From assembly GCA_965248925.1 (NCBI GenBank), contig CBDFLE010000006.1, positions 4,608,001 to 4,672,000 of the forward strand: 64,000 nucleotides of DNA. Direction: 5' to 3'. The notes below the pieces were generated by a model. That model was given only the letters and a program-made list of their open reading frames with translations, searched no databases and was not told where the DNA came from. Source of the DNA: Candidatus Multivoradales bacterium. Its GTDB lineage: Bacteria > Acidobacteriota > Thermoanaerobaculia > Multivoradales > J023. Positions 33,645-41,135 of the stretch are shown piece by piece; within the stretch, counting starts at the first letter, position 1; every line of letters starts with the position of its first letter. A program made the position numbers and the translations under genes.

Positions 33645-34781
33645 TCAGAGTTATCTCAAATGAGTCTCCGGAGCCTGTGTAGGAGAACTTACCTTCCGTA
33701 TTGGGGTTGGACGCATTGACCTTTCCGTATTGAATAGTAAACTCTTCGCTGGCACTCTCCAGGCGGCTTAGTGTGACCCCGAATGACTGGTTGAATTTTG
33801 CGAGTCTTCGTGCCCGATTCTCAAGTTTCTTGTTTGCGAACTTCACGACCATGCCGGTGGGGTCAGTGAAACTCAATGGGTTGTTGAGAGCATATGCGAA
33901 TCGGTTCCAGAGTTGCGGTTTGGTTCCAGCAATCTCAAGTGGCAGAACCGGATCTACACTCAAGAACTTCCCCAACTGCGGACTGCAATACCGAGCATGC
34001 ATGTAATCGAGATCATAGGTCCCGCCAGCAAAGTCCCGCTCATGGCCGGTAAACCTGAGCTGCTCTGAGTCAAAAGCGGTACCCACCTCCTCGCCATAGG
34101 GGTAGTAATTGTGACTGAAGATCGGCGTGCCGTTGCGATCGGTGGTCAGTCGAGCACTGCCCAGGTGGTCGAGACTGAAGTGCTGCCGCGACCGAGGGCT
34201 AGCCAAGTGGGTGTCGGCGGCCAGCTGCTGGCCGCCGCGATAGACGTAATCCTTGAGGAAGCTCCAGGGATTGGTGCCCTTGGGATTCTCGAAGATCGAC
34301 AGCACTTTGGCGTCGAGATCGCGGACGGTCCAGGTCTCGACCAGGCTCTCGAAGGAGCCCTGCCAGTGGAAGGTCCACAGGCGCTCCTCGTCGGCGGTGT
34401 AGATGTAGGTGTCTTCGGGATAGTTGCGGGTGCTCATCATGCCCAAAGCATCGTAGGAGTAAAGCTGCGAGCCCCAGGAGAGGATGTTGCCGCGACCGTC
34501 ATAGACCACCGCGCCGCTGAGCCGGTTGGTGGCTCGGTTGGTGGCCAAGATGCGGCCGTTGACTCCGGTGATGCCGGTTAGGTTGCCAAATGGATCGTAC
34601 TGATAGCCCTGGTCGCCTGAGGAGTCTTCGAAGACCTTGATTCGGTTCAAGCCGGTCGAGTAGGCAGGGGCCGTTGCCGGCCCCCGCCCCTCTAAGAACC
34701 GTACGTGCGAGTTTCCCCGCATACGGCTCAGGCATTCCAAAGGCCGGCTGCTTGCCGACCCGGCTTGTCGGGCTTGTGGGT

Positions 34782-36302
34782 TCAGAATGACAGCTCCAGT
34801 TGCCCAGGCCTCGTTCTTTGGCGGTCCCAATGCTCGCGGCGGCGACGCTGCCTCCAGCGTTCTTTGAAGTACTCCGCGTAACGGGCATCGTGATACCTAG
34901 CTTCGGCCCGAACTTTGATGTGCCGACGGATTCTCAGGCTGCTCGTTCGAAACTGAACGATCGTCTGTGGACGTCTTCCAGCTCGGATTTGCTTGGCATT
35001 GAGTAGCCACCTGGCGTTTCCCACGCGAGAAAAGTATCGCGTCTTGATCCATCGTAGCCCTTTGTTGTTGTGGCGCCTTCGCGCCCATCTCCAGAGCTGT
35101 CCGAAGATGAAGTGGTCGATATTCTGGAAGGTCTTCGAGGCAACGAGATGACGGAACTGGTGAGCCCAGCCGCGGAGGACGCGGTTGAGCTGGTGCAGTA
35201 GATTTTCCGTCTTGGTTCCGAAGTTCCGACGAATGAGGCTCCGCGTTCTTTGGATGAGATCCTTGACGTTGGCCCGCATTGGGCGCATCAGGAGCTTGCC
35301 GTTGTACTTACGTACATTGGCTCCAAGGAAATCGAAACCGTCGTCGATATGCACGATCTGGGACTTCTTTTCGGACAGTCTCAGACCGCGTTCTTTGAGA
35401 AAGGCGGTAACCGCGGGGACGACGTTCTCTTCCAGGAGTTCCCTGGTTCTGGCCGTGGCCACGAGATCGTCTGCGTACCGAATGACATGGACCTTGGCGG
35501 CGGGCTCCTTCCCTTTTGGGCGTGGAACCGCCGAAAGGACATGAGCTTCTAAACCGTCCAAGGTCATATTCGCCAAGGTTGGCGAGAGGATTCCTCCTTG
35601 GGGAGTGCCTTGCTCAGTGGGGTGGAACATCTCACCTTCGAAATATCCGGCCTTCAGCCATTTCCGGAGTAGACTTCTATCCATCGGGATATGGTCTAGT
35701 AACCATTGATGGCTGATTTGATCAAAACAGGCTTCGATGTCCGCGTCGAGCACCCATTCAGCTGCGTTGCCCTTAGCCAATACCATGTGGCATCGCACAT
35801 GGGCATCTTGGATCGAACGGGCTTTGCGGAATCCATAGGAATTTGGATCCGCCCTTTGCTCGGCTACTGGCTCGAGAGCCAGCAGATGAAGAGCTTGCAT
35901 CGCTCGATCGTGCATACACGGGATACTCAGCGGACGTTTTCCGCCGTTGCGTTTTGGAATGTGGATTCGCCGTAGTGGCTGAGGCTGATAGCCTCGCCGC
36001 TTCAGCTCGTCCACGGCCTGCATCTTCTGCCGAGAGGTGTTCCAGAGAACACCGTCGATTCCCGGCGTGCGCTTTCCCTGGTTCGTCGTCACCCGACGAA
36101 CCGCCAGCCGCTTCGCAGGCAGCGCCTGAACCAAAATTCGCTGGAGGGAGCGCACCTTCCCCCAGCGTTCTTTCCGAGCTGCCTTCGCAATACGAACTTG
36201 TAGCCGCTCAACGGTTTTGTACGTCCACCGCCAGTCGATATCCGACCAGCTTTCGACACCGCCCGAAGGTGCGCCGACCGCGAATTTCTTCGGGTCATCC
36301 AT
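34782..36302 (-). CDS. ltrA: Group II intron reverse transcriptase/maturase, no obvious HNH domain
   Basis: WSDIDW..LQVRI N-terminus, GKRTPGIDG, KRPLSIP, SYGFR, GTPQGGILSP, RYADD and GFDFLG motifs; GGAGG RBS. Confidence 0.93.
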   Translation of the reverse strand: MDDPKKFAVGAPSGGVESWSDIDWRWTYKTVERLQVRIAKAARKERWGKVRSLQRILVQALPAKRLAVRRVTTNQGKRTPGIDGVLWNTSRQKMQAVDELKRRGYQPQPLRRIHIPKRNGGKRPLSIPCMHDRAMQALHLLALEPVAEQRADPNSYGFRKARSIQDAHVRCHMVLAKGNAAEWVLDADIEACFDQISHQWLLDHIPMDRSLLRKWLKAGYFEGEMFHPTEQGTPQGGILSPTLANMTLDGLEAHVLSAVPRPKGKEPAAKVHVIRYADDLVATARTRELLEENVVPAVTAFLKERGLRLSEKKSQIVHIDDGFDFLGANVRKYNGKLLMRPMRANVKDLIQRTRSLIRRNFGTKTENLLHQLNRVLRGWAHQFRHLVASKTFQNIDHFIFGQLWRWARRRHNNKGLRWIKTRYFSRVGNARWLLNAKQIRAGRRPQTIVQFRTSSLRIRRHIKVRAEARYHDARYAEYFKERWRQRRRREHWDRQRTRPGQLELSF

Positions 36303-36632
36303 CGCCATTCCTCCGCAGAATCGGTTCTCCAAGCGCTCTTACAAAGAAACACCCGCTGGTGTTAGCGGCTACGGGAAAGCGTACGTAGTTGGTGTAGAGC
36401 GCAGACCAGCACCATTCTCTAGATCCCGCCCAACGGAATCATCATCCCCGCCGCAGGCGGGTCCGTGATCTTGCAGAATAGGGCTGTGGACGGAAGAGAC
36501 GAAGGTCCAGGGGCAATTTGACTAGGCGGTCGAAACCCCTGGACCTCCCCAAGAAGCGCGACCGATAGGCCGGCTCGCGCTAAGTATCTTCGGAAATCAT
36601 CGTCTCGTCTACCCTCTGTCCAGCTGGAGACG

Positions 36633-39302: not shown

Positions 39303-39640
39303 GCAAGTGCGACTACGTCCAGGCGATTCTCAGAGCTTACCTTGAGCAGCAGGAGACCCCTGCTCAGGCAAGACCCACTGACCGCGTACTCGCTCTTGAT
39401 CTCTACCAGCAGCAAGTCTCCATCGATCAGATCAGAGCAGCCATTCTCCTCGCAGCCGGTCGACGAATCCAGCGATCTCCAGAGGCACCCAAGCTAGCCA
39501 AGATCCGATCCCTCGCCTACTTTGCGCCGGTGATTCGAGAACTCGATGGCCTTGAAGACATCGAGGGGTATCTCAAGTATCTCCAAAGCACCGCTCGGCG
39601 CGAGCAGGGGCTGCACACCGGCTCGGATTACACCGAATAG
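39299..39640 (+). CDS. Hypothetical accessory protein inside the IS21
   Basis: ATG overlaps the istB stop; ends 25 bp inside the right IR; IRSLAYFAPVI motif. Confidence 0.65.
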   Translation: MSKCDYVQAILRAYLEQQETPAQARPTDRVLALDLYQQQVSIDQIRAAILLAAGRRIQRSPEAPKLAKIRSLAYFAPVIRELDGLEDIEGYLKYLQSTARREQGLHTGSDYTE

Positions 39641-41135
39641 ATACGTTCTTGCTCAGCCGCTAACAGCTGGACGTTGGCTCGCTTTCGCGCCGGGCAAATT
39701 CCGAACCCGTATCCGATCCATTACAGACCGGCATTCGCTTCTTCCAGCGTCCTACTCCGGCACATCCAATAGCCTCCCTTGCGGTCAGCCTGCCTGGTTG
39801 ACGATAGGAGTCGGAACGATCCCGGGCCGTTCGCTGACGCGGTGGGGCGGGAAAGATCGGACTCTCACCTTCGTAGGCGGACATACCAGGTTTACAAGTT
39901 CCGCTTTCGGAGTACGTAGCTTTAGGTATCAGCTTTAGACCGGGTGATCGACGACCGCGGGCCACGACTACGAGAACGTGGCCCCTGCCACCTTGCCGTT
40001 TGGCCAGGCCTGTCAGCCCCTTTGGCCCTTCATCATAACGATCCCTGCGCTGATTCACATGTGTTTGCCATGGCTACTACCAGACGCTATCCCGGATCGG
40101 GGCTCCCAGGAGCCTTGACGCCTCGCGGTGTCAAGACCGCACCGAGGTGCTTCGCGCATTGTCTGGCCCGCTCTTTATTCAGGGCCGTAGGTTCATCTGG
40201 CGGTACAGATGGTCCTCGCTCATGGGATGGGAAATCAAATAATTGCATTTCGGAGGACAACTCCTTTCATATAGAAAAGCGGCTTCTTGCCGCACTCGTA
40301 GTTGCTGTAGGTGATCTGCTGCGCCTCGGGGTGATTCTCTGAGAGGAGAAAGCCTCGACCGTCGTACTCGAAGGTACGAATCTGGGTGGTACTTCCGCCC
40401 TTCAGATTGGCCTGTTTCAACCGATCGCCGGAGTCGTAGAAGTAGGTCGCCAGCAGGCCGCCCGCGGGCTCGGATACCCGCACCAGGCGGCCGATAATGT
40501 GCCTGGCACCTGTTCCGTCCCGCCTCAGCCCTCAGTGTCACCAGGCTCTCCACCGCTACGGCGCCGCTGGCGTTCTGAACACTGTCGGCGTTGGCTCCTC
40601 CACCTTTGGCGACGTTCCGAGGCCCTCCTTCTCGGTCCCGAAGACTACGCACGACACTCTTCCCGACTCAAGGTCGACCCGATACTCCACGAGGTCTGGC
40701 CTTGTTATGACCCTTAGTACCACGCGGTATGTGCCTTCGTCGACGAACGCTGTGATCACGTTTGGAAAAGCATCCCATATTTCCAGTAACTCGCAACCTT
40801 CCGGCGCAGGCCAGTAGGCCATGGTCCCATTTAGTGTCAGTCTTCCAAATGACAAGCAGGGCGTTGGGTCTCTATGACTGACAAAGAAGATGGAATCTCG
40901 ACTTGGATTCGTAACAGTCGAGAGAATCAATTCCTCTTTGCGCTTGTTGCCAAGTTGCCTCAGAAAACTGCCAGATGCCGAAAAGATTGAAAAACTGCTT
41001 TCGTCATGTCCGGGCTCGGTGAATAGGGCTGAGAAGGAATTTTCCAACGGCACCGACAAATGGCCTGCTGATTCCAGACCTCCTGACCTACCCCTCCTAA
41101 CCCTCTGAAAACACAGGACCGCCCCTCAGAGGTGG

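Follow-up and report, generated by a model that had tools for sequence, protein, structure and literature searches.

How can a group II intron lie between two coding segments that come from different positions of the same kind of gene and still join them in frame? This question is raised by a locus in the genome of Candidatus Multivoradales bacterium (assembly GCA_965248925.1; 7.98 Mb, 6 contigs), of which we analyzed a window of 64,000 nucleotides (nt), i.e., positions C6:4608001-4672000 of contig CBDFLE010000006.1. A minus-strand group II intron occupies window positions 40295-34655, between two pieces of an RHS gene, a gene carrying tyrosine-aspartate (YD) repeats. The two pieces, hereafter exon 1 and exon 2, are 235 codons out of register with each other. 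Our analysis suggests that the intron has a single cognate homing site within the YD-repeat coding sequence, and that the mismatch probably originated, with an order of events read from sequence comparison, as a deletion that preceded the arrival of the intron.

The intron, its nested element, and its exons

The element at 40295-34655 is a real group II intron. The domain V/VI model of Rfam (RF00029) matches positions 34731-34655 of the minus strand (66.5 bits, E of 7e-11, model positions 1-77 of 77), with the 3' end ...CCUACUCGAC at 34655, and the domain I model (RF02012) matches 40212-40084 of the same strand with 64 bits. With the junction marked by a slash, the 5' junction (40296/40295) reads ...AGCAACTACGA/GTGCGGCAAG, and the 3' junction (34655/34654) reads ...CTACTCGAC/CGGCTTGAAC or, in a longer reading, ...CCTACTCGAC/CGGCTTGAAC. 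These ends have the form expected of a group II intron (GUGYG at the 5' end and, following domains V and VI with their bulged A, AY at the 3' end). The same 3' end yields an in-frame join in a relative of the intron (L013/L177, described below), and the 3' junction is covered, with 0 differences, by a unitig of short reads from the source sample.

The interval measures 5,641 nt, of which the intron proper accounts for 2,335 nt. BLAST of the interval against the whole genome splits it into three parts, namely, nt 1-630 (3 copies), an element of 3,306 nt (6 copies), and nt 3937-5641 (3 copies of its 5' part). The middle part, which was absent from an earlier note on this DNA made from the letters alone (the sequence-only reading), is an insertion sequence (IS) of the IS21 family. 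Its terminal inverted repeats (TGTTAGCGGCT and AGCCGCTAACA), of the TG...CA form expected of the family, are bounded by a 5-bp duplication, CCAGC, at 39666-39670 and 36355-36359. It encodes IstA (about 37052-38551) and IstB (38538-39302) on the strand opposite to the intron, with Pfam matches to IstB_IS21 (8e-57) and, in the IstA-like open reading frame (ORF), to Mu-transpos_C_2, as is typical of the family. The other five full copies in the genome are 99.9-100% identical. The insertion point lies ~50 nt upstream of the start codon for the intron-encoded protein (IEP); both other genomic copies of the intron run unbroken across it.

The IEP is encoded within domain IV and comprises a reverse transcriptase (RT) domain with the YADD motif (as IRYADDLV) and a maturase (X) domain, as judged from Pfam matches to RVT_N (3e-29), RVT_1 (6e-41), and GIIM (1e-19). 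No HNH endonuclease family matched the protein in Pfam at an E value of 0.001 or better. The best relative of solved structure is 6ME0_C, the T.el4h (Th.e.I3) maturase/RT (E of 1.7e-149), and the alignment to this 562-aa chain ends at residue 490. T.el4h is described as an intron of the IIB1 type whose RT belongs to the chloroplast-like class 1 (PMC8643678). By these matches, the intron is a new member of the IIB1 type, in the chloroplast-like class 1 RT group, and it is devoid of an endonuclease domain.

The features on which the argument depends are as follows, where EBS and IBS denote the exon-binding and intron-binding sites, respectively, site 1 is the RHS position at which exon 1 ends, and site 2 is the RHS position at which exon 2 begins.

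39666..40295, minus strand: intron nt 1-630, from the 5' GUGCG through domains I-III into domain IV; 99.8% identical to the other two genome copies and 88% to L013
36360..39665, plus strand: IS21-family element of 3,306 bp, inside intron domain IV
34655..36359, minus strand: intron nt 3937-5641, with the remainder of domain IV including the IEP ORF, domains V and VI, and the end CUCGAC
ATG at 36308 to stop at 34782, minus strand: IEP ORF, inside domain IV
39968..39973, minus strand: EBS1, UCGUAG, located in the loop UUCUCGUAGU at intron nt 323-328 and perfectly complementary to CTACGA, with which exon 1 ends
40296..40493, minus strand: exon 1, an orphan fragment of RHS sequence, 198 nt long (1774-1971 in parC coordinates), that ends in ...ITYSNY + GA, with the IBS1 CTACGA at 40301-40296
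33640..34654, minus strand: exon 2, the RHS core from site 2 (C + GLNRIKVF...) into the toxin domain, cut by an IS after ...FEITLT
49990..49995, minus strand: native site 1 of paralog C, CCACGA (an IBS1 mismatch) followed by TTCTCG; unoccupied
49285..49290, minus strand: native site 2 of paralog C, CTACGA, with the first exon-2-equivalent nt at 49284; unoccupied
46987..46992, minus strand: native site 2 of the orphan paralog A, CTACGA; unoccupied

Both exons belong to the RHS family. Exon 2 and paralogs A and C all gave RHS_repeat matches, and the genome contains seven paralogous segments. Exon 1 is 94-97% identical to its paralogs by BLAST, and exon 2 is 95.0% identical to paralog A. In paralog C, the terminal 40 nt of exon 1 map to 49990 and the initial 40 nt of exon 2 to 49284, i.e., 705 nt apart, and translation of the spliced join is in frame (...ITYSNY + GA, then C + GLNRIKVF). 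In all six other paralogs, (C/T)TACGA comes before native site 2, as CTACGA in four of them (A and C included) and as TTACGA in two.

EBS1 lies in a domain I hairpin, GGGGCCACG-UUCUCGUAGU-CGUGGCCC, which is present both in the sequence and in minimum-free-energy folds. Its UCGUAG pairs with CTACGA at all three copies of the intron in the genome, and the corresponding loop of L013 reads UUCUCGUAAU. By this predicted pairing in the phase C-TAC-GA, EBS1 is a reader of Tyr-Asp codons. The word CTACGA is found 42 times in the window against 17.3 expected, a count reached in 0 of 100 shuffles. Genome-wide, the sense strand of RHS DNA (19.6 kb) holds 36 CTACGA sites, every one of them in the phase C-TAC-GA (36/36), and the resulting density of 1.84 per kb compares with ~0.29 per kb per strand for the genome as a whole, which contains 4,658 such words. 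The observations of the sequence-only reading thus stood up to these analyses: the intron ends GTGCG (40295) and CTCGAC (34655), the hairpin and its pairing with a split Asp codon, the position of both exon ends in paralog C, the in-frame join, the CTACGA that precedes site 2 in paralogs A and C, and the eight further coordinates at which it had placed the word, all of which are minus-strand matches.

Homing site and its occupancy

The genome contains three copies of the intron, and all three have site 1 (ITYSNY/D) as their 5' exon, in three RHS paralogs. The consensus of their 5' junctions is ...GATCA(C/A)CTA(C/T)AGCAACTACGA/GTGCG. Each of the copies is damaged. In addition to the window copy, split by IS21, copy 2 (C6:2420194) has no IS21 but is interrupted by another element at intron nt 5572, and copy 3 (C5:1074621) is cut at intron nt 5239, so that the window copy alone retains a 3' end and provides the sole readable 3' exon. 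The introns are 99.8-100% identical, whereas their exons differ by 3-6%, with differences as close as position -12 to the junction; this contrast indicates that the three copies result from separate homing events without co-conversion of the exons.

Of the seven copies of site 1, three carry the intron; of the four empty ones, two have CTACGA, with TTCTCG or CTCTCG after it, and two have CCACGA. Occupancy is thus 3/5 with CTACGA and 0/2 with CCACGA. No intron 5' junction lies at any of the 31 remaining RHS sites with CTACGA in phase, and the six other copies of site 2 in the genome are all empty. An intron at site 2 with the 5' exon belonging to that site (...CATTACACCTACGA/GTGCG; ...ACACCTACGA) was not found in the genome or in the contigs. 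These counts do not bear out the proposal of the sequence-only reading that the intron homes to multiple YD repeats, and the distribution of copies lends no support to the intron-driven shuffling of polymorphic toxins that it had derived from this proposal. The remainder of its interpretation was retained, i.e., a group II intron with an EBS1 for Tyr-Asp codons and a 705-nt in-frame mismatch, to which a relative in a YD-repeat gene can now be added; a genome-wide tabulation of intron flanks also placed all three 5' exons in RHS genes and none at a non-RHS CTACGA.

Published data on related introns offer an explanation for the preference for site 1. In the class IIB1, IBS2, IBS2a (-14), and the distal positions are described as required for integration into DNA (PMC8643678). 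For EcI5, the same source gives the canonical IBS2 as 5 bp ending at -9 and IBS2a as position -14, lists -18, -17, -15, and -14 as critical, and reports a mismatch at -14 alone in just 3 of 178 integration events. Placed by the IBS2 position rule, a candidate EBS2 is as follows.

40013..40017, minus strand: candidate EBS2, GCUGA (intron nt 279-283), forming 4 of 5 pairs with positions -13 to -9 of site 1 (ACAGC)

The C-to-U change of copy 3 at -12 would still allow a G-U pair with this candidate, which forms 3 of 5 pairs with the L013 exon; with site 2, two of the 5 positions pair, one as Watson-Crick and the other as a wobble. Site 2 (...GATCATTACAC CTACGA C) equals site 1 in IBS1 and in position +1 and agrees with it at a further 4 of the 15 positions from -21 to -7 (0-6 of 15 for other YD sites), matching the distal block (-18 to -14) at 1 of 5 positions. 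It would therefore be a poor DNA target, no better than any other YD codon, because it lacks the IBS2 and distal positions needed by the class. An attempt to derive EBS2 from ~50%-identical relatives in an nhmmer alignment of domain I was abandoned, as the alignment was too gappy; many of these relatives begin with UUGCG or CUGCG, and their 5' exons could not be placed confidently.

A close relative of the intron, L013, comes from G432, a metagenome-assembled genome labeled Thermoanaerobaculia. Identity to the window intron is 84% for its IEP and 86-88% for its RNA. L013 lies in a YD-repeat gene, and its 5' exon ends in ...GCCACCTCCTACAGCTACGA. The 3' exon is on another contig of G432 (L177), begins with GGATCCC, and gives an in-frame join (...SYSYE, then DPLVPFSKGRL...). 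The 5' exons of L013 and the window copy are otherwise dissimilar, and what they share is CACCT at -18 to -14 and CTACGA at -6 to -1, a combination that fits the IIB1 target layout. In a weak protein alignment (E of 0.055), the L013 site aligns to the same repeat as site 1. This pattern speaks for one conserved cognate site rather than hopping between YD positions. The L013 contig ends at the last base of the intron and L177 starts with 127 nt of intron, which amounts to a branch of the assembly graph at the 3' junction; there may be more than one 3' context in the G432 population.

Wider searches added few relatives. In 41 related genomes, only matches at the level of domain V/VI were obtained (75-93% identity over at most ~110 nt), and the 3' flanks were not RHS in the rows examined. 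Among 401 genomes of the phylum, two had a match at an E value of 1e-20 or better, namely, the genome studied here and one other at 65% identity. L013 was the only close relative among the matches listed for genome contigs, in which the other 79 IEPs were 54% identical or less, and the best 80 of 564 relatives on metagenome contigs were all at 55% or less. Plasmids contained no place covering 80% of the query, and the best identity there was 65.8%. The runs X5 and X6 yielded short pieces 95-99.5% like the intron, none of them shown to bridge an exon junction. In run X2, coverage of the IEP region was almost nil, from which we conclude nothing.

Origin of the 705-nt mismatch

We consider it somewhat probable that the intron is an ordinary site-specific mobile intron with one cognate homing site, site 1, and that the host module lost 705 bp between CTACGA(C) repeats before normal homing into the resulting hybrid site. 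The cognate site would be the YD-repeat codon block ...ATC ACC TAC AGC AAC TAC GA/C, in which EBS1 would pair with CTACGA, with IBS2 (-13 to -9) and the distal block (-18 to -14) most likely also being read, as suggested by related IIB1 introns. Recent retrohoming would have spread the intron into three RHS paralogs. The orphan module that now hosts the window copy would first have lost 705 bp between two direct repeats of 6-7 nt, CTACGA(C), which is the most recurrent short word in these RHS genes because it encodes Tyr-Asp in one phase. Such a deletion would leave the whole 5' half of site 1 together with a C at +1, so that the hybrid would still be a full homing site and the join would automatically be in frame. 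The intron would then have homed into the hybrid site, and IS21 would subsequently have entered domain IV of this copy. The module carries additional IS damage, so that no functional product would be spliced or expressed here.

This order of events is supported by several observations. The CTACGA(C) repeat is present at both deletion ends in the paralogs. An off-register junction without an intron is found in the same RHS family, at the 5' ends of paralog C and C6:3281811, which are fused at CCCACYGGTGGCCTGGTGGCC; there, the 5' end of each of these two genes is an 84-89% identical copy of a segment inside the gene (51794-51984 and 50143-50333, respectively, in paralog C), joined to an upstream repeat, and the two intact RHS paralogs have a different N-terminal region at this position. 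Finally, exon 2 is 5% diverged from its nearest paralog compared with ≤0.2% among the introns, which leaves much more time for a deletion than for an event of the age of the intron. A microhomology deletion followed by one insertion, which the sequence-only reading had mentioned as an alternative, is thus now better supported than multi-site homing, even though the deleted intron-free allele that it implies was not found.

Several points weigh against the deletion-first order. The deleted intron-free allele, which would read ...AGCAACTACGA-CGGCTTG..., is represented in none of the four empty site 1 copies of the genome. The exact junction motif is absent from 23 other genomes of the family, and a search of 24 family genomes with ≤2 mismatches returned native site 2-type contexts and loose matches only. 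Logan contigs of four runs contained no joint from which the intron is removed and no site 2-type 5' junction, although such contigs show presence and not absence. Alignments of the paralogs over ~19 kb contained no other internal deletion, so that such deletions are not common here. At its left end, the deletion begins exactly where the intron is inserted, a coincidence that we estimate ourselves at ~0.3, given a CTACGA-mediated deletion in the module. The +1 position of L013 is G, in contrast to the C of the window copy, and no compensating change for this difference was identified in domain I; our assignments of EBS2 and EBS3 are tentative.

The same coincidence of endpoints and the lack of other internal deletions speak for an intron-mediated deletion, the model of the sequence-only reading and its variants. 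In this alternative, the ribonucleoprotein attacks site 2 ectopically through complete or partial reverse splicing guided by IBS1 and +1 alone, and recombination with, or repair from, the copy already at site 1 removes the DNA in between; the site 1 copy would lie either 705 nt upstream in the module or in an upstream RHS gene. The junctions are exact at both intron ends, site 2 offers a perfect IBS1 and a C at +1, and the deletion endpoints are the only two places usable by an event guided by EBS1. Two direct 2.3-kb repeats 705 nt apart would recombine readily, and ectopic retrotransposition of Ll.LtrB proceeds to sites that match mainly IBS1. In addition, exon 2 is nearer to orphan modules (95% and 93%) than to full-length genes (89-92%), as fits recombination between a gene and an orphan. 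Against this stands the occupancy, with 0/6 site 2 copies and 0/31 RHS sites carrying the intron and only three copies, all at site 1, despite 4,658 CTACGA words. Site 2 also lacks IBS2 (1 Watson-Crick and 1 wobble pair of 5) and most of the distal block (1/5), and integration of EcI5 is reported to be almost abolished by a mismatch at -14 alone (PMC8643678). We therefore regard intron-mediated deletion as unlikely, albeit worth keeping in mind. It is similarly doubtful that a IIB1 lineage specialized on RHS Tyr-Asp codons makes occasional second-site attacks, followed by recombination that deletes or swaps blocks in frame, with the window copy being the first fossil of this process. The constraints on IBS2 would be relaxed in a route through RNA, in which the excised intron reverse-splices into an RHS mRNA at site 2 and cDNA of the rearranged or trans-spliced RNA is recombined into the chromosome: the EBS2-IBS2 and EBS2a-IBS2a pairings are described as not needed in RNA reactions of the splicing type (PMC8643678), and bacterial group II introns are reported to invade mRNAs and to trans-splice (PMC6248898). 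This route, however, needs several rare steps, no sequence feature separates it from the DNA-level models, and we judge it very improbable.

To two further explanations we give hardly any credence. If the intron had first inserted at an intact site 1 and an unrelated deletion had later removed exactly 705 nt up to site 2, the ongoing decay of the module (three IS insertions and a 5' truncation) would provide a context, but the microhomology available is ≤1 nt and an exact match of the boundary by chance is unlikely. A specific form of this, a post-insertion deletion via the CGAC common to the intron end and site 2, was rejected because it predicts ...CTCGACGGCTTG, one C shorter than the observed ...CTCGACCGGCTTG. 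An assembly artifact, in which intron halves from different loci were joined through the repeated IS21, is conceivable for an element of 3.3 kb with six copies at 99.9-100% identity. However, the two halves of the intron complement each other exactly and have the 5-bp duplication CCAGC in common; the intron is unbroken at this point in its other two copies, so that there are no other half-introns to be mis-joined; and the source-sample unitig covers the 3' junction without a difference. Deletion followed by homing remains our preferred reading.

The host module and related systems

Two intact RHS ORFs are found elsewhere in the genome, of at least 1441 and 1452 aa, one with the resistant CCACGA at site 1 and the other with a perfect, empty site 1. 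The host of the window intron is of a different kind. The frame of exon 1 has no start, three stops occur within 25 codons upstream of the RHS homology, and the frame is closed 78 codons upstream. Downstream, the toxin domain is cut by a DDE-type IS, beyond which an ORF at 31719-32195 carries on the toxin homology to paralog A and is followed by an immunity-like gene. By these features, the host is a decayed orphan RHS fragment, and splicing here would give no functional protein because of the missing start, the upstream stops, and the IS-cut toxin domain. The suggestion that splicing hides the scar of a rearrangement is thus moot at this locus, where the host frame is closed, the toxin domain is cut, and the intron itself is split by an IS. 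We infer the RHS toxin and immunity functions from position only. The host module looks like the continuation of an apparent RHS array, following paralog C and the orphan A. Two features bound or interrupt the module:

40494..40510, minus strand: 17-mer GGTGCCAGGCACATTAT, at the 5' truncation point of exon 1
32093..33523, minus strand: ORF for a DDE transposase (DDE_Tnp_1_4, 1.7e-30), belonging to the IS by which the toxin domain is interrupted

The 17-mer is a near-palindrome with 55 copies in the genome at ≤1 mismatch. Most of these are in stuttering clusters, in which a short variable flank, the 17-mer, and partial copies are repeated head to tail (C6:1089096-1089313, C6:2177234-2177499, C6:1206409-1206654, C5:1397792-1397951, and C6:765100-765245). 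One copy adjoins the truncated intron copy 3, and in about five places the 17-mer starts a repeated element of >6 kb. On a larger scale, the module (30008-41184) is flanked by identical 797-aa transposase genes (Transposase_29, HTH) in inverted orientation, at 27614-30007 (minus strand) and 41185-43578 (plus strand); the pair may mark a composite element or be left over from an inversion.

Other observations concern the RHS modules of the window. Paralog C is split by a frameshift at 50194-50348 into two ORFs that overlap, 588 and 808 aa long (614 and 842 codons counted from stop to stop), whereas its 95.8% identical paralog at C6:1050935 is a single ORF of at least 1441 aa; the frameshift may reflect a pseudogene or a homopolymer assembly error. 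The toxin C termini carry HExxH-like motifs, i.e., LAHETQH in paralog A, LAHEAQH in the cut copy, and LHELAH in paralog C (regions 45624-47297, 47922-50348, and 31719-32195), which suggests putative toxin domains of the metallopeptidase type; no Pfam family matched these regions at an E value of 0.001 or better. A 167-aa ORF upstream of exon 1 (40556-41059) resembles the C-terminal half of a 369-aa ORF (30598-31707) downstream of the cut toxin, with the common pattern ...YWPA..GC....WD.FP.VI..FV..G........I..R..L.EYRVDLE.... The two appear to be genes of the immunity type that belong to successive RHS modules, with an IS having truncated the one upstream.

Two aspects of this system appear to be new. 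One is a IIB1 lineage whose cognate homing site, as predicted here, lies inside YD-repeat coding sequence, in two unrelated RHS genes of two genomes. The other is a copy with flanking exons that are 235 codons out of register and yet in frame. Our search of a full-text literature library found no paper joining group II introns with RHS or YD-repeat genes. If the mismatch had been made by the intron, it would be a case of a retroelement reshaping repeat-protein toxins without a break of the frame. The evidence favors the ordinary reading, and with all copies damaged, the locus is a curiosity and not an active mechanism.

RmInt1 of Sinorhizobium meliloti has an endonuclease-less IEP and homes into a repeated mobile target, at which near-identical copies occupy the same site. 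The window intron resembles it in being endonuclease-less and in having several near-identical copies in a multicopy target family of one genome. It differs in that the IEP of RmInt1 is of another class and in that the target of RmInt1 is an insertion sequence rather than a protein repeat. The ectopic retrotransposition and mRNA invasion described for Ll.LtrB (PMC6248898) provide a known route to sites that match mainly IBS1; unlike in that system, there is no ectopic copy of the window intron in the genome.

The closest parallels are Th.e.I3 of Thermosynechococcus elongatus, whose T.el4h maturase/RT the IEP matches over residues 21-504, and EcI5 of Escherichia coli. With both, the window intron shares the 5' GUGCG, a IIB-type domain V, and a 6-nt EBS1 in a hairpin loop, as well as the predicted order of the target (distal block, IBS2, IBS1, and +1; PMC8643678). 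It is set apart from them by its lack of an endonuclease domain, by a homing site in RHS YD-repeat coding sequence, and by the IS21 that splits the window copy. On the side of the host, orphan modules and the displacement of C termini are described for RHS genes by Jackson et al. (2009; PMC2935791). As with known RHS orphans, the window has a main RHS gene, after which come orphan modules that are truncated at the 5' end and have toxin and immunity parts of their own; one of these modules hosts the intron. Known orphans, however, form in register via the conserved core, whereas the exons flanking this intron are 705 nt out of register and meet at a YD codon.

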